Origin: Candidatus Doudnabacteria bacterium RIFCSPHIGHO2_12_FULL_48_16
GTDB taxonomy: Bacteria; Patescibacteriota; Doudnabacteria; UBA920; O2-02-FULL-48-8
DNA length: 64,000 bases
Reading direction: 5' to 3'
Assembly: GCA_001780035.1 (NCBI GenBank)
Contig: MFEY01000005.1
Span: 40,354-104,353 of the forward strand
Position numbers and translations under genes: made by a program. Below, one piece after another: positions 814 through 58,370 of this stretch. Position 1 is the stretch's first letter. Each line of letters starts with the position of its first letter. The notes below the pieces were generated by a model. That model did no database searches and was not told where the DNA came from. It worked only from the letters and a program-made list of their open reading frames with translations.

Positions 814-1944
814 ATGCTATCAGCCATGAACACAGGTCCTAAAATCAAAAAAACCGTCATTGTCGGCATGTCGGGAGGAGTTGATTCCTCAGTTACCGCA
901 GTCTTGCTCAAACAGCAGGGCTTTGATGTGATTGGCGTGTTCATGAAAAATTGGAGCGAGGATTTTGGCGGTTACGGCTGCACCTGGGCCGAGGATGCGG
1001 AAGATGCCCGCAAGGTTGCCCAGGTTCTGAAAATTCCTTTTTATGTCTGGAATTTCGAGAAAGAATATCGGGCCAAGGTTGTGGACTATTTTTTGCGCGA
1101 ATACCGGGCCAACCGAACCCCCAATCCCGATGTGATGTGTAACAATGAGATTAAGTTCAAGTTTTTCTTGGATAAAGCCCTAAAGCTTGGCGCGGATTTC
1201 GTGGCGACCGGGCATTACGCGCGTATCACGAAACGCGTATCACGAAACGCGTATCACTTGCTCAAAGGCGTGGACCCGGCCAAGGACCAGAGTTATTTTT
1301 TGTATACCCTCAGGCAGAAACAGCTGGCAAAAATTTTATTTCCGATCGGGGGCTATAAAAAAAGCGAAATCCGCCGATTGGCCCGAAAATTCAAACTGCC
1401 AACTGCGGATAAAAAAGATTCCCAAGGCATTTGTTTTATCGGCAAAATCAATGTGGGTGAGTTTCTGCGCGCTCATATCCGGGCCAAGGCCGGCGATGTT
1501 GTGACCGCAACCGGCGAAAAAATCGGCCGCCACTCTGGATTGCCGTTTTACACGATCGGTCAGCGCGGCGGCATCGGAATCGGCGGGGGCGGCCCGTTTT
1601 ATGTCGTGGGCAAGGATCTCAAAAAGAATCAACTGGTCGTGACCAATAAGCCGGCGGATAAAAATTTATGGCGGCGGGAATTTTCGGTTTCAGACATCAG
1701 TTGGACCGGTCAGACCCCGAAATTGCCGCTGCGCGCCGGTGTCACGATCCGGTATCATCATCCGGAGCAGAAAGCCCTGATAGGGAGAATCCCGCCAAGA
1801 GGGCGGGCAGGCAAGAATCCCGCCAAAGGGGCGGCAAGAATCAAATTCGCAAAATCACAAAGGGCGATTACGCCTGGCCAAGCCGCGGTTTTTTATAAAA
1901 AAAATGAGTTACTCGGAGGGGGAATAATTGTTCATGTTTTTTAG
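814..1944 (+). CDS. mnmA: tRNA-specific 2-thiouridylase MnmA
   Basis: PP-loop motif GMSGGVDSSV and a C-terminal AITPGQAAVFY...LGGGII, both MnmA hallmarks. It carries internal tandem repeats, described in the findings. Confidence 0.9.
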   Translation: MLSAMNTGPKIKKTVIVGMSGGVDSSVTAVLLKQQGFDVIGVFMKNWSEDFGGYGCTWAEDAEDARKVAQVLKIPFYVWNFEKEYRAKVVDYFLREYRANRTPNPDVMCNNEIKFKFFLDKALKLGADFVATGHYARITKRVSRNAYHLLKGVDPAKDQSYFLYTLRQKQLAKILFPIGGYKKSEIRRLARKFKLPTADKKDSQGICFIGKINVGEFLRAHIRAKAGDVVTATGEKIGRHSGLPFYTIGQRGGIGIGGGGPFYVVGKDLKKNQLVVTNKPADKNLWRREFSVSDISWTGQTPKLPLRAGVTIRYHHPEQKALIGRIPPRGRAGKNPAKGAARIKFAKSQRAITPGQAAVFYKKNELLGGGIIVHVF

Positions 1945-2623: not shown

Positions 2624-4621
2624 TTACACCAAGAAACTGACTATTAACAAGGCAACAATGTTGATAATCTTGATCATGGGGTTGATGGCCGGGCCGGCAG
2701 TGTCTTTGTATGGGTCGCCGACCGTATCGCCGGTTATCGCGGCCTGATGGGCTAAGGATTTTTTGCCGCCGTAATTGCCTTCTTCAATGAATTTTTTGGC
2801 ATTGTCCCAAGCGGCGCCGCCTGAAGTCATGGAGATGGCGACAAACAAACCGGTAATGATGGAACCGACCAAAACTCCGCCCAGAGCCTTAACGCCCAAG
2901 AAGGGAATGAAGCCGACGGCAATCGGGACCATAACCGGCAAGAGGGCCGGAATGATCATTTCTTTGATCGCGGCTTTGGTCACAATGTCGACGGCTCGGC
3001 CGTAATCCGGTTTGGCCGTGCCTTCCATGATTCCGGGAATTTCGCGAAACTGGCGGCGGACTTCTTCGACCACGGCATGGCCGGCGCGGCCCACGGCCTG
3101 CATGGCCATGGAGCCGAATAGGTAGGGGAGCAAAGCGCCAATCATTAATCCGGCCAAGACTTTGATATCTGAAAGGTCAAATGCCATTGGGTGCCCTAGG
3201 CCCTTGAGTTCTTCCGTATAAGAGGCAAACAAGACGACGGCGGCCAATCCAGCCGAAGCGATGGCATAACCCTTGGTTACGGCTTTGGTCGTATTGCCGA
3301 CTGCGTCGAGTGCATCGGTGTGCTCACGAACTTCTTGCGGCAGCCCGGACATTTCGGCAATGCCGCCGGCGTTGTCCGTAATCGGGCCGAACGCATCAAT
3401 GGCCACGATTATGCCGGCCATCGAAAGCATGGAGACCACGGCAATGGCCGAGCCGTAAAGGCCCATGTAGTGATAAGAAACCATAATGCCGCCGATGATA
3501 ACCAGAACCGGCAGGGCGGTGGATTGCATGGAGACAGCCAGCCCGGTGATGATGTTGGTGCCATGGCCGGTGGTTGAAGCCTCGGCGATTGATTGCACGG
3601 GCCGGTATTGTTTGGAAGTGTAGTATTCCGTGATCACCACCATGGCAGCGGTCACCACCAAGCCCACGAAGGAAGCGTAAAGCAAGCCGGTGCCGAAGAA
3701 GGGAATAAACAAGCTTTTGGTTACCCAGTAAAATCCAACCGCGGCCAGCAGGCCGGAAACGATCAGACCTTTATAGAGAGCGGCCATGATTCCCTTATTG
3801 ACCAAGCGGACGAAGAAGGTGCCGATGATCGAAGCGAAGATCGAAATGGCGCCCAAAGCGAGTGGGTAAAGAACGAAGGTCGTGTTGCCCTGGAATAAAA
3901 TATTGCCCAGGAGCATGGCGGCAATGGTCGTGACGGCATAAGTTTCAAACAGATCCGCCGCCATGCCGGCGCAGTCACCAACATTATCACCAACGTTATC
4001 GGCGATAACCGCTGGGTTTCTTGGATCATCCTCGGGAATGCCGGCTTCAATTTTGCCGACCAAATCTGCGCCGACATCGGCGCCCTTGGTAAAAATGCCG
4101 CCGCCGAGGCGAGCAAATACCGAAATCAAGCTGCCGCCGAAACCGAGGCCAATCAGCGCCTTGATGTCACCGGTAAAATGGTAAAAGAGTGAGACGGACA
4201 GTAGGCCCAAACCGACCACAAACATGCCAGTTACTGCACCGCCCCGAAAGGCCATGTCGAAAGCGGCGGTCAGGCCCTGTTTCGCGCCTTCAGCAGTGCG
4301 AACATTGGCCCGCACAGCCACAAACATTCCGATAAAGCCGGCTAAGGCCGAGGCCACGGCCCCGACAATAAACCCTTCGGCCGTATGGGCGCCGAGGAAT
4401 TTCCAGATGACAATGGCCAAAATTACAGCCACCACGCCCACGGTTTTGTATTGGCGGGCCAGATAGGCGGTAGCGCCTTCTTGGATGGCTTTGGCGATTT
4501 CCTGCATCTTTTCGTTGCCAGCCCCTTTCTGCATCACGAGCCAGGTTAGGATAAACCCATAAACAATCGCGGCCAATCCCGCGATTACGGCAAACCCGAT
4601 GATATTGGATTCGGATAACAT
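2624..4621 (-). CDS. hppA: membrane-bound H+/Na+-translocating pyrophosphatase
   Basis: 665 aa and polytopic. Motifs [26 protein letters not shown] and [13 protein letters not shown] are diagnostic of V-PPase. Confidence 0.95.
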
Positions 4622-9904: not shown

Positions 9905-10531
9905 TTGGAAAAGAAAGTTCTGCTTAAAAAAATCGTCGGCGTGACTCTGATCATATTGGGGGCCATTTCGGTGTTGACGCCTTTTACGCCGTTTGGCTGG
10001 CTGATTTTTGTGGGGCTTGGTTTTTTGGGTGTTAGGATCGGCTTTTGGGCTCGAATTAAAAGTTATTTTAACCGATGGCGGACGAATGGCGGACGAATGG
10101 CGGACGAAATAATCATCAAGTTAAAGCCGGGCGACTCTTTGCATACCGTTCACAGCGCATTGATTCCAATCTTGACGCGAGCCAAAACTGGGACGAGACT
10201 GGGTTATTGCGCCGGCCTGGTCAGTTCGGAAGGGTCGGAGCATGTGACCAAAAATTTTGAGCGCCTGGTCAGATTTGCTCGCCATTTGGAGCAGTTGCAT
10301 GGCTTTGCCGTTTTTTCCAGCGGCGATATTTTTCGGCCCGAAGTGTTGGAAATCGTCAAACACTCGCCCGAACATGATTTTTATCAATTTTGGCGCAACG
10401 TCCTGAGCAGCGGTCTGGTTACCGATGTGTTCATGACCCCGAGGTGGGAGCGATCGAGAGGGGCAATGGACGAGCACGAAACAGCCAAGAAGCTCGGAAT
10501 AGCGATTTATTATTTGGATTTTGAAATCTAA
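9905..10531 (+). CDS. membrane-anchored DUF4406/nucleoside 2-deoxyribosyltransferase-like protein
   Basis: Two N-terminal TM helices and a C-terminal ...MTPRWERSRGAMDEHETAKKLGIAIYYLD. It contains a 3 x 11-bp tandem repeat. Confidence 0.45.
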   Translation: MEKKVLLKKIVGVTLIILGAISVLTPFTPFGWLIFVGLGFLGVRIGFWARIKSYFNRWRTNGGRMADEIIIKLKPGDSLHTVHSALIPILTRAKTGTRLGYCAGLVSSEGSEHVTKNFERLVRFARHLEQLHGFAVFSSGDIFRPEVLEIVKHSPEHDFYQFWRNVLSSGLVTDVFMTPRWERSRGAMDEHETAKKLGIAIYYLDFEI

Positions 10532-12716: not shown

Positions 12717-12748
12717 AAATAAAACCGCCCAGGTAGGGCGGCTTTGGT

Positions 12749-14125: not shown

Positions 14126-14251
14126 AAAAAATGAGTTTCTTCCGCCGTCGCTAAAGCTATGGCGGATCCGCCGAAGCTTTACGCGTAGGCGGAGACCCGA
14201 ACGTCCAAGGGCCAGAAATACAGCGCAATTTGGTATCGAGTCGATTATTTA

Positions 14252-14444: not shown

Positions 14445-16178
14445 ATGAACAAACATTCAAAGCTGATTGTCGTGACCATGTTTATAATGATTTTCGCCAC
14501 GTGGTTTTCGCACAATGTCAAATCAGATTTGCCGTTGATCTTCCAAAAAGACCTGCGCGCGCATGATGAATCCTCCAATTCGACCGTCGCGGCCAATATC
14601 ACCCGGCAATTTTTCCCACCCATGATCCGGGTCAACCCGCTGGATGATAAACAGGGGAACTGGATGGAGGGCCCGTTTTGGCAACATATCCCCCCGCTGT
14701 TTGCTTACGTGCCTTATGCGTTTTTCGAGCTCGACGGACATGTCAGCATAGAAGTTAAGCGGCTCTCTTATGCCTTTGTGACGCTGTTGACCGGGATCTT
14801 GTTCATTGCGATTGTCTTTTGGTTTTCCAGGAATTTACTCGCGGCGTTCGCCGCGCTCTTGGCCAGCTTATTTTGGATCAATACGCCGTTTACCCACGAG
14901 TTGATAACCGGTTATGCGTTCGGCGTCTCGGATATTGTTCTGGCGTTTACGGCCGTTTTGGCCTTTGGCGGGATTTTATTTTATCTTGAAAAAGACCGAG
15001 CAGAGCGTTTAAATTATTCCTGGAAGCGCTTAGCTGTCATCGCTTTGCTCGTGGCCCTGCCGGTCATGGCCAAAAATCTGCTCGGCGCGCTGCCGGCGGC
15101 TGGATTTGTGCTCCTTTTGTTTTGGGACCAGAAAAAATTCAATCGGAACTTTTGGACCTCTCTCTCTTGGCTGGCCGGCTGGCTGATTGCGTATTATTCG
15201 CCCCTGCTGATTGCCTCGCCAGGCACGTTCAAAAATGAAATCCTGGTATCTTTTTTTCATGCCGTCAACTACGAAGGGTGGGGGCGGCCCTGGCATTTTT
15301 ATATTACGGACTATTTGCCGCACCGGTATTTGTTCGGTTGGACGGTTTGGTATTGGCTGGGAATAATTGGCGCTCTGCTGACTCTTGGTATTCGAATTAC
15401 GAATTACGAATTACGAATTACGGTTGAAGCAAAAATGCTGGGGCTCTGCTTGGGCTGGTTTGCGGCCAACCTCTTGGCGATATCTCTAATCATCTCTAAA
15501 ATTCCGAATTTCATTTATCAGAGTTATTTGTTCAGTCTGTTTGCCATCTTTTTAAGCCTGTTTTGGTGGTTCGACAAGTGGCGAATTGAGCAGCTGGACC
15601 AAAAGTATCTGAAGTGGGGGCTTGGCATAGCGCTCGTGATCGCCTTGTTGGTTACCGGGCGCAGCGTTTGGCGGTTTGAGGTTTTGTTCGAGGCGCATCG
15701 GGCGGCGGCGTATAATTACAATTCGGAGCGTGAAAAATTCTATCAGGTGGGGGAGTGGCTGCAGAATTTCGGCCTTGGCCCATCCGATCTCGTAATTGCG
15801 CGCGTCTCGGACAATGATTGTTGGCTGCGCTACGATGTTTTGTTTTTGACCGGTGCGGAAGCCAAAACGCTGACGGAACTCTCTTTCCATCTGCCAGCCG
15901 GGGAACTGGTAAGGCAAAAGTACGGTCGGATCTTTTTTATCGTCAACAAAGCCGAAAGTGTGCCGGCCGGGATTGCCGCCTACCAGCGGGTGGAACTGGA
16001 CAATTATTCGGTCGTCGCGTTTGATCTGAAAAATTTAGACAACGAGGCAACACAGCGGATAATCGCCGCGTTTGCGCGTTCTCATGAAAAGGACATTGCG
16101 CAGGATGTGGCGCGGATCAAGGCTGACAAAACCTCCTGCCAGTGGCTGGTGCCGGACGAAATTTTAAACGCCGACTAA
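14445..16178 (+). CDS. GT-C fold membrane glycosyltransferase-like protein (ArnT/PMT-like)
   Basis: 577 aa, with a polytopic N-terminal half and a soluble C-terminal domain. It carries an internal 4 x 7-bp repeat. Confidence 0.45.
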   Translation: MNKHSKLIVVTMFIMIFATWFSHNVKSDLPLIFQKDLRAHDESSNSTVAANITRQFFPPMIRVNPLDDKQGNWMEGPFWQHIPPLFAYVPYAFFELDGHVSIEVKRLSYAFVTLLTGILFIAIVFWFSRNLLAAFAALLASLFWINTPFTHELITGYAFGVSDIVLAFTAVLAFGGILFYLEKDRAERLNYSWKRLAVIALLVALPVMAKNLLGALPAAGFVLLLFWDQKKFNRNFWTSLSWLAGWLIAYYSPLLIASPGTFKNEILVSFFHAVNYEGWGRPWHFYITDYLPHRYLFGWTVWYWLGIIGALLTLGIRITNYELRITVEAKMLGLCLGWFAANLLAISLIISKIPNFIYQSYLFSLFAIFLSLFWWFDKWRIEQLDQKYLKWGLGIALVIALLVTGRSVWRFEVLFEAHRAAAYNYNSEREKFYQVGEWLQNFGLGPSDLVIARVSDNDCWLRYDVLFLTGAEAKTLTELSFHLPAGELVRQKYGRIFFIVNKAESVPAGIAAYQRVELDNYSVVAFDLKNLDNEATQRIIAAFARSHEKDIAQDVARIKADKTSCQWLVPDEILNAD

Positions 16179-17288: not shown

Positions 17289-18922
17289 AGTCGGCGTTCC
17301 ACCTGATCGATCAATTGTTTGATCGAATCATCATTCGGATAAAGTTCTTCCAAAAGCCTGAGGTATTCGAGGGCTTTTTTGCTGTCATGGTCGTCGAGAT
17401 AGATTTGAATCAGGGCGTTGTAAGAGTAAGTGAACTTCGGGTCCTTTTCGATCGCCAACTTAAAATTTTCGATCGCGAGATCTTTGCGATCAAGGGCTTT
17501 GTAAGCATTGCCTAAATTGTGGTAGGCGACTTGAATGTCAGAATTAAGCGCAATGGCCCGTTGGTAGGTTTCGATTGCTTTTTCGTGCTGGTTGTCATCG
17601 TCATAGGCCATGCCGAGGTTATTGATTACGCGGTAACTGGTTGGCGCATAGCGCAGGGTCTGGTTATAAAAAATGATCGGATCACGCCATTCGGCGTTGC
17701 GGGAGATGGTTGTTTTGGCCAAAAAGACCAGGTAAATGAGCAATAATATTGAGATGGCTTGGGCGACCCTCACCCGCCCCTTCGGGGCACCCTCTCCCGT
17801 AAAGGGAGAGGGAAGAATAGAAAAAAAACTGATCCAGAAGCCGGCCATGGGCAGATATAACCAGTGTTCATAGAGCAGGCCGTTGATCGGCACCAAAATG
17901 TTGGAAACAGGCGCCAAACAAATCAGAAACCAGAGGCAGCCGAATGAAACCGCTGGCCGCTTTTTGAATTGCCAGAAGGCGGCCGCGATCAAAATTACGA
18001 ACAGCGCGAAACCGGCGATGACCTGAGAATTCCGGAGGCTTTGGGCGATTTCAATTGAGCGCTCCATGTGCAGATCATGCGGATAAATCAAAAGACCGAG
18101 GTAGACCCATAGGCTTTTGAAAAAAGTCAAAATGCGGACATAGACATGGCTGGTGAATAAATTTTGCTCGTTGTAAAGGTTAAAAGTGTTTTGGAAATTT
18201 AAAACCGTGGCGCGAAGGAGGATGTAGAATCCGGCAATGACAACGCTGGGCCACAGATTGTAAAAGAAATTACGTAACCTCGAATTAAATTCGGGATTGC
18301 GAAAAAACAGCTCAATTAACAGAATCAATCCTGGATAGACGATCGCGGTTTCCTTCGACATCAAAGCCAGCGGGAAAAAGGCGATTGACCACCAGAAAGA
18401 AGAGCGAACTTTATACTGTCGCCAAAACAAATAATTATTCAAGCCCAGCAACATGAATAAAACCGAGAGGGAATCACCCAAGCTGTTGACGTAAGTGACC
18501 GCCTCGGTTTGCAGCGGATGGATCAGAAATACCAGAGCAGTTAAAAAAGCCAGCGAATCTTTTTTGAATAATGCCCGCAGCAGATAGAACAGCAGAATGC
18601 TATCCGCGATATGAATAAATAAGTTAACGAGGTGATAACCATAGACCTGGCTGCCCCAGAGATGGTATTCGACAGAAAACACTATCAATAGAACCGGCCG
18701 CCAATAGTTACTGACGATATTGGCGCCGGCAACGACATTTTGTGAAAAATATTCCGGCAAATGCGACCAGTTGTGGACAAACTGGTTGTTTAGAATAAAA
18801 TCATTGTCATCCCAAAACATCTGGTTGGGGATTGTGTTGGCGAACAGAATCAAGCCGAACAGGGTCAAAACTGCGGGAATGAACCAAGATTTTTGTTTCA
18901 GAGTGAGCCAAATGTTCCCCAT
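17285..18922 (-). CDS. TMTC-like protein O-mannosyltransferase family membrane protein with C-terminal TPR repeats
   Basis: HPLQTEAV-type motif in the TM region and C-terminal TPR units (AYHNLGNAYKAL...). It contains a GC-rich double-hairpin insertion. Confidence 0.65.
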   Translation of the reverse strand: MGNIWLTLKQKSWFIPAVLTLFGLILFANTIPNQMFWDDNDFILNNQFVHNWSHLPEYFSQNVVAGANIVSNYWRPVLLIVFSVEYHLWGSQVYGYHLVNLFIHIADSILLFYLLRALFKKDSLAFLTALVFLIHPLQTEAVTYVNSLGDSLSVLFMLLGLNNYLFWRQYKVRSSFWWSIAFFPLALMSKETAIVYPGLILLIELFFRNPEFNSRLRNFFYNLWPSVVIAGFYILLRATVLNFQNTFNLYNEQNLFTSHVYVRILTFFKSLWVYLGLLIYPHDLHMERSIEIAQSLRNSQVIAGFALFVILIAAAFWQFKKRPAVSFGCLWFLICLAPVSNILVPINGLLYEHWLYLPMAGFWISFFSILPSPFTGEGAPKGRVRVAQAISILLLIYLVFLAKTTISRNAEWRDPIIFYNQTLRYAPTSYRVINNLGMAYDDDNQHEKAIETYQRAIALNSDIQVAYHNLGNAYKALDRKDLAIENFKLAIEKDPKFTYSYNALIQIYLDDHDSKKALEYLRLLEELYPNDDSIKQLIDQVERRL

Positions 18923-24668: not shown

Positions 24669-25655
24669 TCAGAGAAACAGCTTGTTATTCAAGCTTTGCA
24701 GGCCGTTAAGGTAATCCTTACCGGTCATTTCGTTTTTGCCTTCCGGTTTGACTTTTTTGAGCAGTAACGAGTTATCGACGCATTTAACGGCCAACCCTTC
24801 GCCGGTGCCGTAAAGTTTGCCGGGCAGTTCGATTTTGTGATCGCTGATAATTTCAACTTCCAGGATTTTTACAAGTTTGCCGCCCAAGGTCGTCCAGGTT
24901 CCGGGCTCCGGGTTGTAGGCGCGGATCTTGCGGTCAATTTCTGCGGCGGATCGGGCCCAATCGATTTTCCCGTCGTCCCGAGTGAGCATTTTGGTGTAGC
25001 TGGCTTCTAGGTGATTTTGAGGTTGACGGGACAGCCGGCCGGCGACTAAATTAGTCAGCGCTTCGCTGACTAATTCGGCTGACAAGAGTGAGAGCGAATG
25101 ATAAAGCTCCGGCAAGGTTTCTCGACCGGTCAGGGCCATAGTTCGGATAGCCAAAATATCGCCATGATCCATTTTTTCATCCATCTGGATCAGAGTTATC
25201 CCGGCGCTTTTGTCGCCATTGAGAATAGTCGCCTGGATCGGCGTCGCGCCCCGGTATTTGGGCAGCACGGAGCCGTGAATATTGATCGAGCCAAATTTGG
25301 GCAGATCAAGAATTGCCTGGGGGAGAATCTGACCGTAAGCCGCAACCAATAAAAGATCAGGACTTAAATTAGAAATTATAGATTTTAAATTATAAATTTT
25401 TTCAGGCTGCTCAACCGGTATGCCGTTCTTTAGGGCCCAAACTTTAATCGGCGGGGGAGTAAGTCTCCTGTCCCGGCCGGCGGGCTTGTCCGGCTGGGTA
25501 ATGATTAAAACAATTTCAAAAGGAGTTTTTCCGCCGGAGGCGCCCGCCTGCCCGGCCGGCAGGGATCCGCCTTTGGCGGAGAGTTTTTCCAGGGTCGGGA
25601 TGCCGAATTCAGTTGTGCCGGCGAATATGATTTTTAGCATGTTACATCTTCTCAT
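24669..25655 (-). CDS. fmt: methionyl-tRNA formyltransferase
   Basis: IVLIITQPDKPAGR...SINIHGSVLPKYRGATPIQ. It carries a roughly 17-aa P/A/G-rich insertion from a GC-rich hairpin pair. Confidence 0.9.
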   Translation of the reverse strand: MRRCNMLKIIFAGTTEFGIPTLEKLSAKGGSLPAGQAGASGGKTPFEIVLIITQPDKPAGRDRRLTPPPIKVWALKNGIPVEQPEKIYNLKSIISNLSPDLLLVAAYGQILPQAILDLPKFGSINIHGSVLPKYRGATPIQATILNGDKSAGITLIQMDEKMDHGDILAIRTMALTGRETLPELYHSLSLLSAELVSEALTNLVAGRLSRQPQNHLEASYTKMLTRDDGKIDWARSAAEIDRKIRAYNPEPGTWTTLGGKLVKILEVEIISDHKIELPGKLYGTGEGLAVKCVDNSLLLKKVKPEGKNEMTGKDYLNGLQSLNNKLFL

Positions 25656-27217: not shown

Positions 27218-28730
27218 ATTTGCGCCGAGTCCGACAGGTTTTTTGCATATTGGTGGCATCCGCACCGCGCTTTACGAATTTCTTTGGGCGCGCAAAAATA
27301 ATGGCAAGTATCTCCTGCGCATCGAGGACACAGATCGCCAGCGGCTCGTGCCCGGATCGCTGGAGAATATTGTGCAAAGTTTGGAGACTCTGAGAATCGT
27401 CAGCGATGAGGGGCCGTATTGGGACAAGGGCCTCAAATTTCGCGGTGAGTTCGGGCCCTACATCCAATCCGAGCGGCTGCCAATTTATCAAAAATATGCC
27501 CAAGAGTTGATTGAAAAAAAAGCGGCTTACTATTGTTTCTGCTCGAGCGAGCGGCTGGATAAACTGCGTGAAGAACAGCAGGCCCAGAAACTGCCGCCGA
27601 AATACGACAAACTCTGTCTGAAATTGTCATCAGAAGAGGTTAGCAGTAAGCTAGCCGCGAAGGAAGCGCATGTCATCCGCCTGAACGTGCCGAGTGATCG
27701 GATAATTAAATTTCATGATCATATACACGGCGATATTGAGATTCCGAGCAAGGATGTAGATGACCAGGTGCTACTCAAGTCGGACGGATTTCCCACGTAT
27801 CACTTGGCGGTTGTCGTGGACGATTATTCGATGAAAATTTCCCACGTGATCCGAGCGGATGAGTGGATTGCTTCCACCCCCAAGCACATTCTCTTGTATG
27901 AAGCTTTTGGCTGGCCACTGCCAGTGTTTGTGCACTTGCCGGCGATCTTGTCCCAAGCGACCGGGAAGAAACTTTCGAAACGCGAGGGAGATGTCTCGGT
28001 TAAGGATTTTTTAGACAAAGGTTATCTGCCTGAAGCGTTGATAAATTTTTTGGCCCTGCTTGGCTGGAATCCGAAAACGGAGCAGGAGATTTTCAATATG
28101 CGTGAATTGGTCGCAGAATTTTCCCTTGATAAGCTCAATAAATCCGGTGCTGTGTTTGATTTGGACAAATTGGACTGGTTTAACAGCATGTATATCCGAG
28201 CTCTTAAAATTGAGGACTTGTTTGCCAGACTGGTTCCATATTTGGTCAAGGCCGGAATTCAAACCGAAAAATATCCGAAAGAGTTTCTAGAAAAGATTTT
28301 ACTGCTCGAACAAAGCCGGCTTAAAAAACTCTCCGAGATAGGGGAGAGGGTCAAATACTTTTTCGAGGAGCCGCAATACGAGCCCGGACTTTTGTGCCCG
28401 CCTGCGCGCAAGGCTTCGGCGGGTCCGCCTCCGGCGGAGAAAAAATCAGAAAAAGAGACAATTCTCAAAAATTTGAATTCACTGCAGATTTTTCTGCAAA
28501 CATTGTCCGCCGAGAAGTTTGCGCAAAAAGACATTGAAGCAGAGATCAAAAATTTTATTGAGAGCAACCAATTAAAAACCGGAGAAGTGCTCTGGCCGTT
28601 GCGCGTGGCTCTGTGTGGCCTGGAAGCCTCGCCTGGGCCGTTTGAAATCATTGACGCGTTCGCCAGTCTGCCCGATGGCAAAGAACAGGTGCTTAAGCGC
28701 ATCAGCCGGGCGTCGGAAATGCTGTTTTAA
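27198..28730 (+). CDS. gltX: glutamate--tRNA ligase
   Basis: HIGH motif (PSPTGFLHIGG) and KLSKR (KMSKS). The C-terminal region carries a P/A-rich insertion from GC-rich hairpins. Confidence 0.9.
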   Translation: MPEVRTRFAPSPTGFLHIGGIRTALYEFLWARKNNGKYLLRIEDTDRQRLVPGSLENIVQSLETLRIVSDEGPYWDKGLKFRGEFGPYIQSERLPIYQKYAQELIEKKAAYYCFCSSERLDKLREEQQAQKLPPKYDKLCLKLSSEEVSSKLAAKEAHVIRLNVPSDRIIKFHDHIHGDIEIPSKDVDDQVLLKSDGFPTYHLAVVVDDYSMKISHVIRADEWIASTPKHILLYEAFGWPLPVFVHLPAILSQATGKKLSKREGDVSVKDFLDKGYLPEALINFLALLGWNPKTEQEIFNMRELVAEFSLDKLNKSGAVFDLDKLDWFNSMYIRALKIEDLFARLVPYLVKAGIQTEKYPKEFLEKILLLEQSRLKKLSEIGERVKYFFEEPQYEPGLLCPPARKASAGPPPAEKKSEKETILKNLNSLQIFLQTLSAEKFAQKDIEAEIKNFIESNQLKTGEVLWPLRVALCGLEASPGPFEIIDAFASLPDGKEQVLKRISRASEMLF

Positions 28731-30330: not shown

Positions 30331-31080
30331 CTACTTCTCAACCACAATCATGGCCTTGGGCCGGCCTGTTTGGTCTTCGTGATACCCCGTCTTGTAATCG
30401 ACAAGGGCATTAAAGAAAATATTGTAGCTATATCTGTAGCCTTTGCCATTGCGTGTGCCAGGATCATTGGTTATGACTTGTTTCTTCGCCTCATCGTATC
30501 CTATAACCACGAGCATATGCGTCAGTGGCCCGGCACCGGTGAAATTAGGGTTATTGAGCTTCTGGCCATTGGCCGGAGTAATGACTAACTTCCCTGCCGC
30601 CAGTTCTTTTTTGATGTCTTCTATAGTGATCCCTGACTTTACAGTATGGTTATCGTAGTGATAATAATCCGTCATGAGCTTGGCCGTATCGGCTGCGCCC
30701 AGGTCCAGGTAGTTACCATAAGTTTCTTTTTCAAACTCAGACATGGCAATAATGGTTTTTTCCGCTTCAGAAGCTGAGATGGAAGTTTTCCCTTGGGTCC
30801 AGGCGTAGGCCATGATCAACGAAGCCTCTTCGCAACCATCCTGTTGGCGCGGATCAGACCAGTTGGCCGTCGGCGCTTGGGCAGTAAAAGGCACGGTCAA
30901 GAGGACATAACCCGGCAAGGCGCTCGCCTGCCCGGCCGGAGTTGACGGGCTTTGGCTAGCGGGACTCGTTTCGTTCTTGGGTTGATCCTTGGGCTGATCA
31001 TTTGGTTTGGGTTTGAATATCAAAACCGCTGCCAAAGCCAGAGCGACCATGATCAAAATTGTTAAATTGATTTTTTTCAT
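30331..31080 (-). CDS. secreted C39-like (BtrH/YvpB-type) cysteine peptidase domain protein
   Basis: Signal peptide, a Cys in QQDGCEEAS and a His in THMLVVIGYD. Confidence 0.55.
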   Translation of the reverse strand: MKKINLTILIMVALALAAVLIFKPKPNDQPKDQPKNETSPASQSPSTPAGQASALPGYVLLTVPFTAQAPTANWSDPRQQDGCEEASLIMAYAWTQGKTSISASEAEKTIIAMSEFEKETYGNYLDLGAADTAKLMTDYYHYDNHTVKSGITIEDIKKELAAGKLVITPANGQKLNNPNFTGAGPLTHMLVVIGYDEAKKQVITNDPGTRNGKGYRYSYNIFFNALVDYKTGYHEDQTGRPKAMIVVEK

Positions 31081-34880: not shown

Positions 34881-34903
34881 AACCCCGCCTCTGGCGGGGT
34901 TTT
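34881..34903 (+). terminator. intrinsic terminator after rpmA
   Basis: aaccccgcc-tctg-gcggggtt followed by ttg. Confidence 0.6.
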
Positions 34904-36108: not shown

Positions 36109-36127
36109 GGCAAAAACTAAACACCCC

Positions 36128-36161
36128 GTCTCTCGCGAGAGGCGGGGTGTTTAAATTTGAT
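36128..36161. terminator. bidirectional intrinsic terminator (convergent genes)
   Basis: aaacaccccgtctctcgcgagaggcggggtgttt hairpin with a self-complementary ctcgcgag core. It abuts the pyrG stop codon. Confidence 0.6.
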
Positions 36162-41840: not shown

Positions 41841-42513
41841 GATCTTGAATGATATTTTTTAATTTTTTGAGGTGATGAATCAAGTGATCGGGTTTTGTCG
41901 CCTTGAGCCGCCGGGTGCTGGAATTGCCACCCGACAGAGCTACGGTGACGTATCCGAATTTTTTTCCGATCTCAATTTCTTCGGTAGTGTCGCCGACGAC
42001 CAGGACCTCGTTTGGCTTCAGTCTATTTTTTATCACGTATTCCTCGAGCTGGCTTTCTTTGCCTCGCTTGTGCATCAACGAAGTGTCCTCCACGGTGGTA
42101 AAGCCCAAAATATCTTTAAAGGAATCAATTTCCAGGCGCTTTAGTTGCTTTCGGATATGAGATTCCATATGGTTGCTAAAAATAACCTTGTTGATTTTTT
42201 GAGTTTCCAGCCAATCCAAAATTTCGCGGGATCCGGCCCTGGTTCGACATAAACCTTCCCGGGGTTCGTAATAAGTGAAATATGTTTTACGGATTGTTAG
42301 AACATTTCGCTCGAAGTCTTTTAGTTTCATCCCCATCGCCAGCCAATACAATTTAAATGGAACAACCATCTTGTGCTGCAGCTCTTTTAGATTTGTCGGC
42401 TTTAAACGAAACTTGACCAAGGTATGCGACATGGCTCTTACCACCAGATTAGTATCGGCAAAGATAGTGCCGTTCCAATCAAAAGCCACTAGCTTAATTT
42501 TATCCTTTGTCAT
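41815..42513 (-). CDS. HAD-family hydrolase/phosphatase
   Basis: VAFDWNGTIFADT is HAD motif I, and VVGDT..E is motif IV. Confidence 0.7.
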   Translation of the reverse strand: MTKDKIKLVAFDWNGTIFADTNLVVRAMSHTLVKFRLKPTNLKELQHKMVVPFKLYWLAMGMKLKDFERNVLTIRKTYFTYYEPREGLCRTRAGSREILDWLETQKINKVIFSNHMESHIRKQLKRLEIDSFKDILGFTTVEDTSLMHKRGKESQLEEYVIKNRLKPNEVLVVGDTTEEIEIGKKFGYVTVALSGGNSSTRRLKATKPDHLIHHLKKLKNIIQDHGRTAAKN

Positions 42514-44230
42514 ATTTTTTATCCAGTTCCGCCTCCTTGACCCGCTGTTTGGCTTCGCTGTCAGCGCGGGACCAGTAATAGTTTTCGTAATCGACGAATT
42601 TCATCATGTCCGCTCGCCATTGGCTGCGCTTGGCAATCAGTTTATGCATTTCCTGGGCCGCCAGCCGGTATTGCGGATGCCCTTGCGGCGTCGAGCGCAG
42701 CTCCAGCATATGCATAGCTTCCCGGTCGTTAAAGGCAATCGACCAGCGGATGTAATGGCCATGCAGCGTTGCATATTGGGCGGCCAGTGGCGCCGTCTTG
42801 AGCATGGCATCGAACAGCTTATCGGATTTTTCAATGCAGATTTTGATTTTGTCTTCCACTCCGGCCTGGATAATTTCCTGCGGCATCTGAAAGCCGATTT
42901 TCGTGGTAAACATCTGGCGCTGCTGCGTGTTCATGCGATGCCGCTGCAAATCCTTATAAGTGCCAAAGTTAATTACTGTATCAAAGCTATGCGGATAACC
43001 TGTTTCAAGGCCCCGGCCGGGCCGCTGGCGGCGATTTTCGCGCTCTCCGACGTAGACCCGGACAATTTCCTTGCGGTCATTCTCGCTCATGTTTTCAATT
43101 TTGCGGCGTATTTTTCGCAGGGGCATATTGGAATAAGGAAAAACCATGGCGGCGAGCTGGTCAACGTCCGCAGTTTCTTGTAACAGGGCGGTGATTGCCG
43201 CGGCATTGACCGCCTTGTTCTTGAGCTTTATGGCCAGGTATTCTTCTCCGCGATCCTGCAGGTCATAATGCGGCAGAGTTGGCGGCACTTCAGGTGTGTC
43301 TAACCAAAAATGCTTTTTAGCCAGACTCGCTATTTCTTTTTCGGTTTCATGCCAGTATTTGTCTGCTTTGGCCCGGCGCACGTATTGCGGAATAGTTTGC
43401 GCCAAGGCTTTGGCGGTCTGGTTCGCAATGCTGTTGAATTCCGGCAGCTTATGCGTCAGCAAATTCGAGATCAAGGTTTGATAGAAGCGGCCATTGCCAA
43501 ACATGCCGACATTCGTCAGAGTGCCGATCGGCAGCAGGCAGCGTAGGGTATCACAAGCTTTGGACCGCAAATCAAAGTTGTAGGTGGTTTTAAAAGCCTT
43601 CTGTTGCTTCTCATCAGTTATGTCGGCAAATTTTTCTTTGGCGCCGTCACCGTTGATATCGTATTCGGCTTCGCCGATCGGCTTGAGTTTTTCGTAGTAA
43701 GCCTTGAGCGGCTCGACCAGGTCGGCATATGTCTGGAAGATAAAATCCATCGTTTTCGCATATTGCGGTCCGAACGGTGCGCCTAAAACATCCTCGCCGC
43801 GATAATACAGCCAGTTGCCTTTGTCGTCCTTCTGGTCATAAAACACGTAGCGCGTGGATTGCTCGATTGGTGAACCGCCAATGCGGTGATCCTCGATTTC
43901 CTTGGCCGCGATCATCGTCACCTTTTCAAACGAAACATGACCCCCCTCCAATTCCCCCACGCTGTCGTCGCCATAAGCGACCAATACCCGGGCAATCAAT
44001 TCATCCGCATGTTTCGGGTCAATCTGACCTTCTTTGATAAATTCTTTGAGCAAAGTTTCGCGAAATCCGCCCTTGGCGCGCGAGTAGCGGGCATAAGCGG
44101 CGCCGACGATGCCGCTTAAGTTTCTGATGGCAAAGACATTGTCCTCGGTCGAGGTGACATAGGGTTCCAGGAGTTTTTTTTCGTCGTCAGTGAACATATA
44201 AATGCGTATTAGAACCTTAACTTTTTCCAA
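42500..44230 (-). CDS. thyX: FAD-dependent thymidylate synthase ThyX, long (~570 aa) form
   Basis: RHRMNTQQRQ is the ThyX RHR motif, with ELRSTPQGHPQYR alongside. The extra N-terminal half contains a degenerate YARYSRA. The start may be the M at 44197. Confidence 0.6.
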   Translation of the reverse strand: MEKVKVLIRIYMFTDDEKKLLEPYVTSTEDNVFAIRNLSGIVGAAYARYSRAKGGFRETLLKEFIKEGQIDPKHADELIARVLVAYGDDSVGELEGGHVSFEKVTMIAAKEIEDHRIGGSPIEQSTRYVFYDQKDDKGNWLYYRGEDVLGAPFGPQYAKTMDFIFQTYADLVEPLKAYYEKLKPIGEAEYDINGDGAKEKFADITDEKQQKAFKTTYNFDLRSKACDTLRCLLPIGTLTNVGMFGNGRFYQTLISNLLTHKLPEFNSIANQTAKALAQTIPQYVRRAKADKYWHETEKEIASLAKKHFWLDTPEVPPTLPHYDLQDRGEEYLAIKLKNKAVNAAAITALLQETADVDQLAAMVFPYSNMPLRKIRRKIENMSENDRKEIVRVYVGERENRRQRPGRGLETGYPHSFDTVINFGTYKDLQRHRMNTQQRQMFTTKIGFQMPQEIIQAGVEDKIKICIEKSDKLFDAMLKTAPLAAQYATLHGHYIRWSIAFNDREAMHMLELRSTPQGHPQYRLAAQEMHKLIAKRSQWRADMMKFVDYENYYWSRADSEAKQRVKEAELDKKYDKG

Positions 44231-46617: not shown

Positions 46618-46673
46618 ATAAAGTAAAACAAAAGACCTGCTCGTATTATAGCAGATCTTTTTACTTTTGACTT

Positions 46674-47387
46674 TTAAATTTTGACCTTGATACCGGGGCC
46701 CATGGTCGCATTGACTGAAATGGACTGGATATATTCTCTTTTTAGGCCCGCCGGTTTGGCAGTTTCCACCGCATCCATAAAAGTCTTAAAGTTGGCCAGG
46801 ATTTGATCATCCGGAAAACTGGACTTGCCGAGAATCATATGGATGTTACCGGATTCATCATTTTTGAATTCAGCCTTGCCAGTCGCAAATTCCTTGACGG
46901 TCTTGCCGATATCGGCCGAAACGGTGCCAGATTTGGGATTCGGCATCAAGCCCTTGGGTCCCAAAATTTTGGCCACAGATGCCAGTTTGGCCATCATGGA
47001 CGGTTCGGCAATGGCGATGTCGAAATCCAGCTTTTCGGTTTCCTTGATTTTTTTTATCAAGTCCTCGCCGCCAACCACCACCGCACCCGCATCCAGAGCT
47101 TCTTTTTCTTTGCCACTTGATACAAAAGCGGCAATGCGCTTGGTTTTACCCGTGCCATGGGGCAGGGTGACGGTCGCGCGCAGGGCCTGATCGCTTTTTT
47201 TTGGATCGATGCCGAGGCGGATGTGAACTTCAATGTTGCCTACGAATTTAGTGGTCGCGGTTTTTTTGGCCAAAGCAATCGCTTCGGCAGCCGGATAAGT
47301 CTTATTCTGGTCGACTTCTTTCAGTGCGGCGTTAAATCTTTTACCCATGTTTCTCCTTTGTGGTACAAACGCCTTTCGGGCTCCCAC
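46674..47387 (-). CDS. rplA: 50S ribosomal protein L1
   Basis: MGKRFNAALKEVD...KFVGNIEVHIRLGIDPKKSDQ. Confidence 0.9.
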   Translation of the reverse strand: MGARKAFVPQRRNMGKRFNAALKEVDQNKTYPAAEAIALAKKTATTKFVGNIEVHIRLGIDPKKSDQALRATVTLPHGTGKTKRIAAFVSSGKEKEALDAGAVVVGGEDLIKKIKETEKLDFDIAIAEPSMMAKLASVAKILGPKGLMPNPKSGTVSADIGKTVKEFATGKAEFKNDESGNIHMILGKSSFPDDQILANFKTFMDAVETAKPAGLKREYIQSISVNATMGPGIKVKI

Positions 47388-47420
47388 GAGTTAATTTATA
47401 ATCTCTAATTTATAATTTTT

Positions 47421-47823: not shown

Positions 47824-48246
47824 CTATTTAATTTCCACGCCCATGGACCGGGCCGTGCCGGCGACTATTTTTTCAGCGGCTTCAATGTTGTTGGCATTTA
47901 GGTCCGGCATTTTCTTTTCTGCGATTTCGCGCAGTTGGGCTTTGCTGATTTTGCCGACTTTGTTCATGAGCGGATTGCCGCTGCCTTTCTCAATACCGGC
48001 CGCTTTCTGGATCAAAACCGCCGCGGGCGGGGTTTTGAGAATAAAAGTATAAGTGCGGTCCTCAAACACCGTAATTTCCGCCGGAATGGTCAGGTCGCCC
48101 ATCTGGGAGGTGCGCTCGTTAAACTCCTTGATAAACTGGCCGATGTTGATCCCGTGGGGCCCAAGGGCCGTCCCTGTTTGCTGAGATGGCGCGGCTTTCC
48201 CGGCCGGGAGCTGAATTTTTAAAACAATTTTTACCTTTTTAGCCAT
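47824..48246 (-). CDS. rplK: 50S ribosomal protein L11
   Basis: [18 protein letters not shown]...GPALGP.GINI. Confidence 0.9.
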
Positions 48247-55411: not shown

Positions 55412-58370
55412 ATTGGCGGTATCGACACTCTTTGGCGTGCTGAGTCCGGCGGTCGGCTTCCAGGAAATTTCCAGTCTGCGTAGTTTCAATAATTTCCGCA
55501 ATTGTTTTGAGCAGCCGGGTTTTAATTTCGCCGATTTCCGTGGCCGTGCCCAAAAATTCACCGGAATCATCCAGACTTTCCAGGAACCAGTAACTGAGGC
55601 TTTGGATTTTTTCTTTGAACTCCTCTTGTGCCGCCCACTGATAAATTAGCAATTGCTGCTTGTCGACCGACGAAAGTTTACCGCGCGCAGCGCCGGTTTT
55701 ATAGTCAATAATGCTGATAGAGCCGTCCGGATTCAGATCGCCCCGGTCGATTTTGCCGACAAACTTAAATTTATCGAGCCGGAGCTTGAAGGGCTTTTCC
55801 AAAAACTTCGGCAACTTCGGGTCATCGGAAAATTTCCTGAAAAAGTTATCCAAATATCTGATTCCGCGCTTGCGATATTCTTCCTTATTGATCTTGTCAG
55901 GAAACCAGTCATCGACCCAAGATTCGGCGTAATATTTTTCCAGCAATTCTTTTTTAGGTAATTCAACCTGGCCGGTTTTTTTTGACCCAAACAGATCCGG
56001 TTGCACTAGTGTGTTAATCTGAACCAGGTGTTTGAGATATTTTTCCAAGGTTTTGTGAATCGTAATGCCGAAAGACAATTGCGCTTCGCCCGGCAGTGGC
56101 AGATGATAAACGTATTTGAATTGATACTCGAGCGGGCAGTGGAGAAAACACGAAATCTGGGAGAAAGAAAACGTGTCGGGAATGATCAGTTTGGTTTTGA
56201 GGCCCAGGAGCGGCGGTTGCTTGGTAAAAAACACTTCACCGGCGGGCGGCGCCTTCTTGATTTTTTCCTCGAGGCCCAGCTCGACCAGAAATCGGGACGG
56301 TTTTTTGTTGGTCGTGCCGCCGTAATCATCAGCCCAAGTCAGAAACAAAAACCGCTTGGCGCGCGTAGCCGCCACATAAAACAGACGGCGTTCCTCCATC
56401 AAATGCGCATCCCCTTCCGGCAAAATTTCCTTGACCAACGGCGGCGGAATCTCGATTTGTTCGGATCGGGCGCGCGACGGGAACCGCTGATCCACCATAT
56501 TGACCACAAAGACGCAGCCAAACTCCAATCCCTTGGAAGAGTGCACGGTCATGATCCGGACCGCTTCCGGCCCGGCATCCGGGTTAAATGCCAGCTCGCC
56601 CTGGTCGCCCGCTTCCATTTCCAGACGGATCTGGGCCATAAACCCTTTGAGCGATCGGTCGGTATTCTCTTCCTCATATTTTTGCGCTTTGCGGTAAAAT
56701 TGCTCCAAGAGCGAGCGGTTCTCTACGTTCGCGGCAGAGTCGGCGATTAAATTTTTAGTCCATTCCAGATCATGGAGGACATTCACCAGCAGTTCAGCCA
56801 CAGGCAGGTCGCGGCTCGCAGCCGCATGCTTGGCCAGGAGCCGAAGCAGATCCTGCGCCTTGAGGTTGTGGCTGTCCTTGACCGCTTCATACAAGGAAAC
56901 CGCCTTGCGCCTGGCAGTTTGCGATAAGAAAATCAGTTCCTCGTCCGGAATTTTAAATTTTGGCAAATTGAACACGCGAAACAGATTTTCACTTTCATGA
57001 TAATTATCCAGGAGCCGCAGGTAAGCCAGAATGTCTAAAATCAGGGGTTTTTTGTAAAGGCCACGGTTGGCTACAAACATATATGGCAGGCCCCGCCGCG
57101 ACAATTCGGCAATAAAGGCCTCGGCCGAATCATTGGCCCGCACCAGAATGGCAAAATCATTAAAATTTAATTGCTCACTTTGGGCCAACTCAATGATTTT
57201 ATCCGCGACCTGGCGGGCTTCCTCGTAAACACTGCCGGCATGCAGAACCTCGATCTTGCCGGACAGGCTGGTGCCGGCAGTCAGTTTTTTGGAAATTTTA
57301 AGCTTAGCTTCCAGACGCTCGGGATTGTTCTGTTGGATAAAACCGTAAGCCAAATCCAAAATCTTTTGGGTTGAGCGGTAATTCTCGGTCAGCGTCACTT
57401 CCTTGGTCCTAGGGAAATCTTCCTGGAATTTTAAAATATTGGAAATGGAAGCTCCGCGGAATTTATAAATCGACTGGTCATCGTCACCGACCACGGTAAT
57501 GTTGTTTTCCGGCAAAGCCAGTATTTTGACCAGATGATATTGGGCCAGGTCCGTGTCCTGAAATTCATCGACCAAAATATATTTAAATTTTTTCTGATAG
57601 AGTTCGAGGATCTTGGGCCTGGTGCGAAAAAGCTTCAGGGCATAGTTAATCAGATCCCCAAAATCCAGATGGCCCTCATCCAGCAGGAGTTTTTGATATT
57701 TATGATAAGCATTCGCCACTTCCAAAATCCTGGCCACTTCAGCTGCGTCAATCTGCAATCCTGAACTTGCTTCAGGATCTGTCTTTTTCTTCCGGGCTTT
57801 CTTTTTAATTTCAGCGCTATCTGAATTTAACCGCAGCCCTTCCGCGTATTTTAAATAATCATCCGGCCTGATTTCCTCACCCTTGGCCTTGTTAAAGTGC
57901 CGGAGCAGGGCGTGAATGAATTTATTGGGATTGCCCACGGGCTTATAATAATCCAAATCAAAATCATACAGGTGTTTTTTGATCAGCATCCAAGCTTGGG
58001 TGTCGGTGATTACCTTGAAATCGCCCGGCAGCCCGATATCGAGGGCGTGTTGGGACAAAATTTTCTGGGCAAAGGCGTGAAAAGTGGAAATTTGAATATC
58101 GGAATAGCCAAGTGGCATCAGCATGTCGACCCGCTCTTCCATTTCGTTGGCTGCTTTTTCGGTAAAGGTTAGGGCCAAAATTTCTTCGGGCTTGGCCAAG
58201 CCCTGCTCGATCAGCCAGACAATGCGCCTAGTTAGAACCGTAGTTTTGCCCGTGCCGGCCCCGGCTATGATCAAAAGCGGACCTTGGCCAAACGTCACGG
58301 CTTTACTTTGGTCTTTATTTAAGCCATTTAAAGTTTTGGAATCAGTTTGTGTTTTAGTTGCGGCCTTCAT
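55401..58370 (-). CDS. UvrD/PcrA-type ATP-dependent DNA helicase with C-terminal PD-(D/E)xK nuclease domain
   Basis: AGAGTGKTTVL is the Walker A motif, with UvrD motifs throughout. The C-terminal ...IDRGDLNPDGSISIIDYKTG... is a RecB-like nuclease fold. Confidence 0.9.
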   Translation of the reverse strand: MKAATKTQTDSKTLNGLNKDQSKAVTFGQGPLLIIAGAGTGKTTVLTRRIVWLIEQGLAKPEEILALTFTEKAANEMEERVDMLMPLGYSDIQISTFHAFAQKILSQHALDIGLPGDFKVITDTQAWMLIKKHLYDFDLDYYKPVGNPNKFIHALLRHFNKAKGEEIRPDDYLKYAEGLRLNSDSAEIKKKARKKKTDPEASSGLQIDAAEVARILEVANAYHKYQKLLLDEGHLDFGDLINYALKLFRTRPKILELYQKKFKYILVDEFQDTDLAQYHLVKILALPENNITVVGDDDQSIYKFRGASISNILKFQEDFPRTKEVTLTENYRSTQKILDLAYGFIQQNNPERLEAKLKISKKLTAGTSLSGKIEVLHAGSVYEEARQVADKIIELAQSEQLNFNDFAILVRANDSAEAFIAELSRRGLPYMFVANRGLYKKPLILDILAYLRLLDNYHESENLFRVFNLPKFKIPDEELIFLSQTARRKAVSLYEAVKDSHNLKAQDLLRLLAKHAAASRDLPVAELLVNVLHDLEWTKNLIADSAANVENRSLLEQFYRKAQKYEEENTDRSLKGFMAQIRLEMEAGDQGELAFNPDAGPEAVRIMTVHSSKGLEFGCVFVVNMVDQRFPSRARSEQIEIPPPLVKEILPEGDAHLMEERRLFYVAATRAKRFLFLTWADDYGGTTNKKPSRFLVELGLEEKIKKAPPAGEVFFTKQPPLLGLKTKLIIPDTFSFSQISCFLHCPLEYQFKYVYHLPLPGEAQLSFGITIHKTLEKYLKHLVQINTLVQPDLFGSKKTGQVELPKKELLEKYYAESWVDDWFPDKINKEEYRKRGIRYLDNFFRKFSDDPKLPKFLEKPFKLRLDKFKFVGKIDRGDLNPDGSISIIDYKTGAARGKLSSVDKQQLLIYQWAAQEEFKEKIQSLSYWFLESLDDSGEFLGTATEIGEIKTRLLKTIAEIIETTQTGNFLEADRRTQHAKECRYRQYVV

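Follow-up and report, generated by a model that had tools for sequence, protein, structure and literature searches.

Palindromic selfish DNA lying in frame within protein-coding genes is known from the Rickettsia palindromic elements (RPEs), which are about 100-150 bp long, fall into few sequence families and are confined to Rickettsia (Ogata et al. 2000, as reviewed in PMC10969869). Here we describe a comparable case from the Candidate Phyla Radiation (CPR): a GC-rich double hairpin inserted in frame in the mnmA gene of Candidatus Doudnabacteria bacterium RIFCSPHIGHO2_12_FULL_48_16. The gene lies in a stretch of 64,000 nucleotides of contig MFEY01000005.1, hereafter the window, which carries palindromic modules in other genes as well; a 30-nt palindrome, here called the canonical module, was found in many further CPR genes. 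Like RPEs, these sequences are palindromic, sit in protein-coding genes, keep the frame, occupy surface sites compatible with fold and function, and are present or absent between close relatives. An earlier note on this DNA had likened the mnmA hairpins to RPEs for their in-frame behavior, and as an analogy the likeness is apt. As to membership, the mnmA insert lies in frame in an intact open reading frame (ORF) at what is predicted to be a permissive surface site, but it falls outside the RPEs by its length (a 57-nt region that adds 30 nt net, roughly a fifth of the length of an RPE), its host and its copy number. CPR units measure 15-42 nt (21 and 16 nt in mnmA), are GC-rich in a genome of intermediate GC content and occur in a different phylum. 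RPEs form multi-copy families, as do the modules in fmt, gltX and upstream sequence described below, whereas the mnmA unit is found at a single locus. The canonical module differs further by entering the same codon boundary repeatedly.

REP and REPIN sequences mobilized by RAYT (TnpA-REP) are extragenic, bear a GTAG or CGTC tag, reach high copy number and occur alongside a RAYT gene (PMC3733652, PMC8266576, PMC5581495). They too are GC-rich imperfect palindromes of 20-40 nt, often arranged as inverted pairs, which form single-strand hairpins and leave no target-site duplication; the mnmA hairpins, 17 and 15 nt long within units of 21-28 nt, are palindromes of this sort. However, the CPR modules lie inside ORFs and none of the 25 window proteins scanned is a RAYT. 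Membership of the mnmA insert is ruled out by its intragenic position and by the lack of GTAG, CTAC, CGTC and GACG from 1783 to 1845 (tag as in PMC3733652). IS200/IS605-family elements and their palindrome-associated derivatives (PMC6006769) range from hundreds of base pairs to kilobases and are cleaved outside their hairpins. Their subterminal hairpins at both ends, single-strand intermediates and short specific target, used without duplication, match the clean TTTTG^AAAGCC insertion in trmD reported below, but none that has been described comes near the small size of a 30-nt element consisting only of two abutting hairpins, and no transposase is linked to the latter.

Two further groups deserve comparison. 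The mobile GC clusters of yeast mitochondria and other organellar hairpin elements (PMC4478555), together with the coding palindromes of Nematomorpha mitochondria (PMC6649704), are short GC-rich palindromes spreading in an AT-richer genome, and can lie in frame in protein genes with both arms translated. They differ in their organellar host, in their sequences and in a mobility tied to recombination and double-strand breaks. Miniature inverted-repeat transposable elements are 50-500 bp long, end in inverted repeats and duplicate their target site; some, such as Correia or ERIC, lie within genes (PMC10969869). As small non-autonomous repeats able to create in-frame fusions they resemble the CPR modules; the mnmA insert is not one of them, being too short and without terminal inverted repeats, and its AGAATC flanks pre-exist in an uninserted ortholog.

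A double hairpin inserted in mnmA

The mnmA gene, encoding tRNA 2-thiouridine(34) synthase, spans positions 814-1944 of the forward strand as an intact ORF of 376 amino acids. The assignment comes from the ORF list, from Pfam matches PF03054, PF20259 and PF20258, and from orthologs named MnmA; the catalytic residues Cys109 and Cys207 and the PP-loop are invariant in the ortholog alignment. Near the 3′ end of the gene, on the same strand, codons R325-I343 (1786-1842) consist of an in-frame tandem repeat with a period of 28 nt, 2.2 copies and 85% matches in Tandem Repeats Finder, which bears out the imperfect repeat of about 28 bp that the earlier note had placed at 1785-1842. The first unit measures 28 nt (1786-1813), the second 23 nt (1814-1836), and a partial AGAATC follows. 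Read by segments, the order is AGAATC / CCGCCAAGAGGGCGGGCAGGC / AAGAATC / CCGCCAAAGGGGCGGC / AAGAATC. Hairpin 1 (1791-1807, forward strand) has an exact 6-bp stem, CCCGCC-AAGAG-GGCGGG, and belongs to the 21-nt module CCGCCAAGAGGGCGGGCAGGC at 1792-1812; hairpin 2 (1820-1834, forward strand) has a 5-bp stem, CCGCC-AAAGG-GGCGG, within a 16-nt module at 1820-1835. A CCCGCC/GGCGGG hairpin, announced for both repeats, is thus exact in the first and reduced to CCGCC/GGCGG in the second. Between the modules lies an AAGAATC heptamer (1813-1819, forward strand), with further copies at 1786-1791 (as AGAATC) and 1836-1842.

Such hairpins are more frequent in the window than expected: the pattern CCCGCC-N3-7-GGCGGG has 2 matches against 0.04 expected, and CCGCC-N3-8-GGCGG has 8 against 0.9. 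Folded as DNA, the mnmA segment forms two hairpins at -13.9 kcal/mol (z = -3.5). A sliding 45-nt scan of minimum free energy (MFE) over the whole window was too permissive to discriminate, and Rfam matched two tRNAs only in the window. The GC content of 1786-1842 is 63% (core, 70%) as compared to 50% for the whole gene. It is raised, as had been claimed, but not extreme, since 7.9% of all 57-nt windows are equally GC-rich and the maximum within mnmA lies elsewhere, near 1540. Elsewhere in the gene, at 1220-1257, a perfect 14-nt tandem repeat, CGCGTATCACGAAA, present 2.7 times, encodes ARITKRVSRNAYH; the protein length there equals that of orthologs, so that a repeat whose unit is not a multiple of three covers a segment of normal length.

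MnmA was aligned with 38 orthologs from Patescibacteria, mostly Doudnabacteria-like. Between LIGRI and ARIKF, the window protein reads PPRGRAGKNPAKGA where the closest orthologs, P0002 (78% identical) and P0003 (77%), have about four residues, KNQE. The difference amounts to 10 additional residues in the C-terminal domain, in agreement with the 10-12 of the earlier note, whose author had set this very comparison beforehand as the one able to refute an insertion. The comparison did not refute it: the insert is missing from the orthologs that are 77-78% identical and from almost all of the 38 in the alignment. DNA alignment with the gene of P0002 (locus L002) showed that the uninserted site reads AGAATCAAGAATCAAGAAGCAAGAATC, a heptamer tract (AAGAATC)x4. 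The heptamers at 1786-1791, 1813-1819 and 1836-1842 are, judging from this alignment, remnants of that tract, and subtracting one heptamer from the two modules (21 and 16 nt) gives the net gain of 30 nt. The insert is present in all six members of the 90% cluster, including four NCBI records of Candidatus Doudnabacteria bacterium, and the gene is 100% identical in two independent metagenome-assembled genomes (MAGs; L186 and L187). Identity across independent assemblies rules out an assembly artefact.

In an AlphaFold2 model of the protein (mean predicted local distance difference test score, pLDDT, of 80.8), residues 326-340 link strands 319-325 and 341-350 of the C-terminal beta-barrel, and pLDDT falls below 50 at residues 329-337. 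The Pfam match to the C-terminal domain stretches 85 residues over 76 profile positions. Together, these results identify the mnmA segment as a young, fixed, species-level in-frame insertion of hairpin DNA in a loop predicted to be disordered. The enzyme carrying it is most likely still functional, with a longer disordered loop.

Hairpin inserts occur at other MnmA loops in relatives. The mnmA gene of L004 has four tandem hairpins over 28 amino acids, a 102-nt stretch of which folds at -55.6 kcal/mol (z = -4.4), and that of L005 has one hairpin insert over 13 amino acids. As a separate observation, the ortholog P0054 (67% identical; L003, ~3690-3740) bears in the same loop as the window protein a different GC-rich insert of 39 nt, SAPGGTEVQLPSGQ, bounded by GAATC, while orthologs closer than P0054 are empty at that position. 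The C-terminal loop of MnmA may be a recurrent insertion site.

Palindromic modules in other genes of the window and of the CPR

The earlier note had seen inserts of similar structure in fmt, gltX and a TMTC-like gene. Ortholog comparison supports the first two. The fmt insert, on the reverse strand at 25530-25580, is formed by TCCGCC-AAA-GGCGGA and TCCGCC-TCC-GGCGGA, reads SAKGGS..ASGG and is interrupted by a nested 21-nt hairpin, CTGCCGGCCGGGCAGGCGGGC (25542-25562), which sits within the second arm of the double hairpin. In fmt of a Doudnabacteria relative (L006) the module is uninterrupted: TCCGCCAAAGGCGGATCCGCCTCCGGCGGA, 30 nt long, forms a perfect double hairpin and reads SAKGGSASGG. More distant orthologs from Buchananbacteria lack it. 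The nested module has a second copy in the window, on the reverse strand at 30918-30939, which matches at 21 of 22 nt (95%), is read in the same frame (PAGQA) and falls in the linker of a secreted C39-like peptidase. The gltX insert (28397-28438, forward strand) is a 42-nt module, CCCGCC-N15-GGCGGG followed by TCCGCC-TCC-GGCGGA, which entered inside a Trp codon and reads PPARKASAGPPPAE. It makes the window protein 13 amino acids longer (CPPARKASAGPPPAE versus IW) and is absent in all nine orthologs compared. The sequence TCCGCCTCCGGCGGA is common to the gltX and fmt inserts. A further double hairpin, TCCGCC-N14-GGCGGA plus TCCGCC-N15-GGCGGA, lies at 14141-14193, 16-68 nt upstream of the start codon of a DEAD-box helicase gene (RNA fold z = -5.2), and matches 32 nt of the gltX module at 88% identity. 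For the TMTC-like gene (17761-17820, reverse strand) the hairpins are real (z = -4.3), three in number and GC-rich, with different stems (GCCCC-ttc-GGGGC; CCCTCTCCC-gtaaa-GGGAGAGGG), and read PSPFTGEGAPKGRVRV; they may or may not be an insertion, the sole ortholog compared (46% identical) showing no length difference there. When the four coding inserts are set against each other, those of fmt and gltX share TCCGCC/GGCGGA stems with the element upstream of the helicase gene, whereas those of mnmA and the TMTC-like gene differ, so the four do not constitute one sequence family.

An unbiased survey of all indels of at least 4 amino acids between window genes and syntenic relatives returned six of hairpin type (GC at least 0.64, MFE at most -16 kcal/mol): those of mnmA in the window, in L004 and in L005, and those of gltX, fmt and the helicase tail. 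The remaining listed indels were mostly ordinary in GC and folding. Since the mnmA, gltX, fmt and helicase-tail indels stand apart in this survey, hairpin inserts form a distinct class. This genome has a family of palindromic modules, found both within genes and upstream of one.

The CCGCC/GGCGG stem of the coding inserts also occurs in terminator-like hairpins of the window, at 12725-12741, 34883-34899 and 48018-48030 (for example aaCCCCGCCtctGGCGGGGtttt). Genome-wide the stem is over-represented, with 13 hairpins (loops of 3-22 nt) as compared to about 3 in Markov simulations.

The canonical module is the 30-nt palindrome TCCGCC-NNN-GGCGGA-TCCGCC-NNN-GGCGGA. The pattern CCGCC-N3-16-GGCGGR-TCCGCC-N3-16-GGCGGA matched at least 120 stretches of metagenome sequence, 80 loci of which were fetched (L061-L140). 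The 30-mer with its two 3-nt loops was found in 59 of these 80, mostly on low-GC contigs from groundwater or sediment; in 40 of the 59 it falls within stop-to-stop ORFs of at least 450 nt. Its frames are used unequally (chi-square about 25): SAxGGSAxGG 28 times, PPxADPPxAE 8 times and RRxRIRRxR 4 times. The flanks carry T at positions -3 to -1 and A at +1 to +3 (TTT^AAA), and the loops follow NNA and TNN. Judging by the flanking translations, the host genes encode DnaE, UvrC, RseP, RecG, CCA-adding enzyme, FtsK, RluD, Pgi, GatB, GyrB, OTCase, DnaJ and TrmD. An MnmA of another CPR lineage (L190:1086-2255) also bears a canonical module, at TTT^AAT and at a site other than that of the window gene; its second hairpin, CCAGCC-TCC-GGCTGG, has both arms changed with pairing kept, a compensatory change. 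Among 60 loci fetched earlier, TCCGCC...GGCGGA hairpins were limited to those of the CPR. The viral collection yielded only two canonical modules, which leaves phages as no obvious reservoir.

Other peptides apparently derived from palindromes were noticed in frame in CPR genes (L066:1019-2155; L090; L072:1620-3311): an RseP-like protease has IASSPEATEIISHPLSLRAESEAISK, a FemAB-like protein PSPQSSPTRGEEE...SPLGRGE and a CCA-adding enzyme QPPPTVGGGARRG. Coding palindromes in CPR genes thus seem to fall into several distinct families.

The behavior of the canonical module is best seen in TrmD. Comparison of L136:1757-2524 with L183 and L184 defined the module as exactly 30 nt inserted between TTG and AAA. 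The empty alleles, whose proteins are 95% and 85% identical, read GTTTTG^AAAGCCGAAGA, so the insertion entailed neither target duplication nor deletion. Eleven of 120 TrmD homologs (P0126-P0245) carry the module, which in ten of the 120 occupies the same codon boundary. On a neighbor-joining tree the carriers lie scattered, and Fitch parsimony calls for at least 8 changes from an empty root state, a count that is approximate because the tree derives from a short protein. The canonical family thus shows clean, site-specific insertion and, among close relatives, a patchy distribution.

Origin of the mnmA insert

In the reading that we favor, to which we give a probability of roughly 60%, the mnmA feature is a non-canonical relative of the CPR palindrome family that was inserted in a heptamer tract, duplicated locally and tolerated as a loop. 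A stem-loop module of about 21 nt, with the core CCGCC...GGCGG preceded by ATC, would have landed in the (AAGAATC)n tract, which is predicted to encode a beta-hairpin turn in the C-terminal barrel of MnmA. Its duplication would have followed, through slippage between the neighboring heptamers or because the repeated target was hit a second time. Presumably the insert survives because its net length is 30 nt, because its GC-only stems hold no stop codons, and because its P/R/G/K/A residues only lengthen a disordered loop. More widely, small palindromic modules would enter coding sequence in Doudnabacteria and other CPR lineages, with selection keeping those in frame. GC-only stems devoid of stop codons, in modules whose 15 or 30 nt keep the frame, would account both for tolerance inside genes and for the bias toward the frame giving a flexible Ser/Ala/Gly peptide.

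That the mnmA unit derives from the canonical family is something we infer from shared features: the CCGCC/GGCGG core, the variant stem CCCGCC/GGCGGG, the 5′ ATC context and the net gain of 30 nt. Hairpin 1 has the variant stem and hairpin 2 only CCGCC/GGCGG, and both are preceded by ATC like many members. The fmt and gltX inserts belong to the family outright. In mnmA the copies of one unit stand head to tail, as in a simple tandem duplication, which explains the second hairpin and not the origin of the first.

Several observations weigh against this derivation. The mnmA hairpins have loops AAGAG and AAAGG and a 13-nt spacer where the family has two 3-nt loops and abutting hairpins (junction GGCGGR/TCCGCC). 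The target is GAATC^AAGAAT and not TTT^AAA, its flanks pre-existing as the heptamer tract, and the translation of the insert differs from that of the canonical module. No second copy of the unit turned up: not in the window (24-mer with up to 3 mismatches), nor in about 18 kb of additional flanking genome (about 82 kb of genome searched in total), nor in about 1 Mb of fetched loci, where the best off-site match in blastn-short was a non-significant 14 nt (E = 0.16). The degenerate pattern AAGAATCCCGCCAARRGGGCGG had no match in GTDB genomes and none in JGI metagenomes. A Pfam scan of the 25 window proteins revealed neither a transposase nor a RAYT / Y1 protein. As RNA, the segment folds at -22.7 kcal/mol with a weak z-score of -2.0. 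Finally, the direction of the change, gain as opposed to precise loss, rests on parsimony only.

A rival reading is a purely local origin, in which slippage or template switching in (AAGAATC)n made a GC-rich quasi-palindrome and then duplicated it. The resemblance to the family would then be coincidental, GC-only stems being the sole stable short stems. In its favor, the uninserted ortholog has the heptamer tract at exactly this position, heptamer copies bound the tandem repeat that forms the insert, none of the searches found the unit elsewhere, and the occurrence of CCGCC/GGCGG stems in ordinary terminators of the window indicates that the stem may simply be common in this genome. However, heptamer slippage cannot account for the 21 nt of GC-rich sequence that are new here. 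Moreover, inserts of hairpin type are found again in other genes of this genome and, in relatives, at other loops of MnmA; the genome also holds an apparently mobile family with the same stem core, and the L003 lineage has a different GC-rich insert at the same loop. We consider a local origin unlikely, though it is the strongest of the competing explanations.

It is quite improbable that the segment is kept for a function, be it a basic loop improving tRNA binding by the barrel or a structure in the mRNA, some 100 nt ahead of the stop codon, that pauses ribosomes or stabilizes the transcript. The insert is indeed fixed in the species, every sampled assembly carrying it unchanged, it is basic (3 Arg and 2 Lys among residues 327-340), its hairpins fold better than shuffled sequence, and one family member shows a compensatory stem change. 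On the other hand, it was not found outside the species (nearly all of the 38 aligned orthologs being without it), its loop is predicted to be disordered, and the presence of like inserts in an untranslated region as well as in unrelated proteins points to a process at the DNA level. The RNA z-score is weak, and the stems come in a single sequence variant, too few for covariation. An artefact of assembly or sequencing, such as a chimeric or adapter-derived palindrome, is hardly credible: library artefacts can make palindromes, and the canonical module resembles a synthetic Gly-Ser linker and includes a BamHI site, but mnmA is identical in several independent MAGs and assemblies (NCBI, ENA, JGI, Logan), the reading frame is kept, and the family, present in data of many studies, varies in its loops, has a defined target and shows compensatory changes.

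Other candidates were rejected. A diversity-generating retroelement, an intein and translational bypass are ruled out, as the segment is in frame, without stop codons and without a template repeat. A DNA uptake sequence would require a far higher density, and the GAATC flanks are no target-site duplication, being already in the uninserted ortholog.

The preferred reading, that of a relative of the CPR palindrome family, invites a broader one. The mnmA hairpins and the fmt and gltX modules may be traces of an undescribed CPR mobile DNA system, a 30-nt two-hairpin palindrome that inserts without duplication at T-rich^A-rich sites and repeatedly homes to the same codon boundaries (at least 8 times in TrmD; also in RecG, GyrB, UvrC, GatB, DnaJ, MnmA and others), with selection mostly for the SAxGGSAxGG frame. 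We hold this proposal tentatively, at a little under even odds. The modules would be moved by a hairpin-recognizing single-strand enzyme of the HUH/Y1 type (IS200/IS605- or RAYT-like), or by gene conversion. Insertion of paired hairpins at a short specific target, without duplicating it, resembles HUH/Y1 single-strand transposition (IS200/IS605, RAYT-REP; PMC6006769, PMC8266576). Gene conversion, as proposed for mitochondrial GC clusters (PMC4478555), is by analogy also a possible mechanism. If true, the proposal would imply a hairpin-specific single-strand integrase or conversion mechanism that is still uncharacterized.

Further repeats in the window, and implications for the CPR

Heptamer tandem repeats are frequent in the window, at 15393-15422, 25365-25398, 46657-46685 and 47392-47418, and include (CGAATTA)x4.3, reading RITNYELRIT, and (TAAATTA)x4.9 inside fmt. 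Orthologs have heptamer arrays as well: (AAGAATC)x4 in mnmA of L002 (~1300-1330), and (ATTACGA)x3 followed by (AATCCGC)x3 in mnmA of L004 (~10460-10510). Both ortholog arrays are within ORFs, as are at least the first two of the window, and the heptamer AATCCGC is similar to the 5′ arm of the hairpin module. The palindrome ACCCCGyCkCTCGCGAGAGGCrGGGT, 26 nt long, was noted in two near-identical copies, at 36123-36148 and 61233-61258. The former, between convergent genes, looks like a bidirectional terminator; the latter is inside a 167-amino acid ORF without a Pfam match. The region 58000-62000 has a GC content of 0.56 against about 0.48, and in it a PurH-like gene (AICARFT/IMPCHase) adjoins a tRNA at 61726-61798; the region may be of foreign origin. 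At 42500-44230, a 576-amino acid ORF with two Thy1 (ThyX) stretches is about twice the usual ThyX length and may represent a duplicated or fused thymidylate synthase.

Our searches of the literature for palindromes in CPR or Patescibacteria, for in-frame insertion there and for the motif itself found no description, the motif being known there only from cloning primers and synthetic linkers. The 30-nt palindrome in CPR housekeeping genes is thus apparently undescribed before. Its kind is already known, namely palindromic selfish DNA within coding sequence, of which the canonical module may be an unusually small and site-specific element. To our knowledge, a 30-nt two-hairpin palindrome would be the smallest bacterial mobile element.

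The inserts have practical consequences: they can mislead alignment, the placing of domain boundaries and structure prediction, and they can serve as strain-level presence/absence markers. They also account for many of the loops rich in P, G, S, A and R in CPR proteins. If the family is truly mobile, its clean, duplication-free and recurrent insertion at the same sites would offer a testable handle on a possibly new mechanism of single-strand integration. It would also attest to an extreme miniaturization, with 15-nt hairpins in 30-nt elements, and palindromic selfish DNA in coding genes, so far a curiosity of Rickettsia and organelles, would be common in the Candidate Phyla Radiation.

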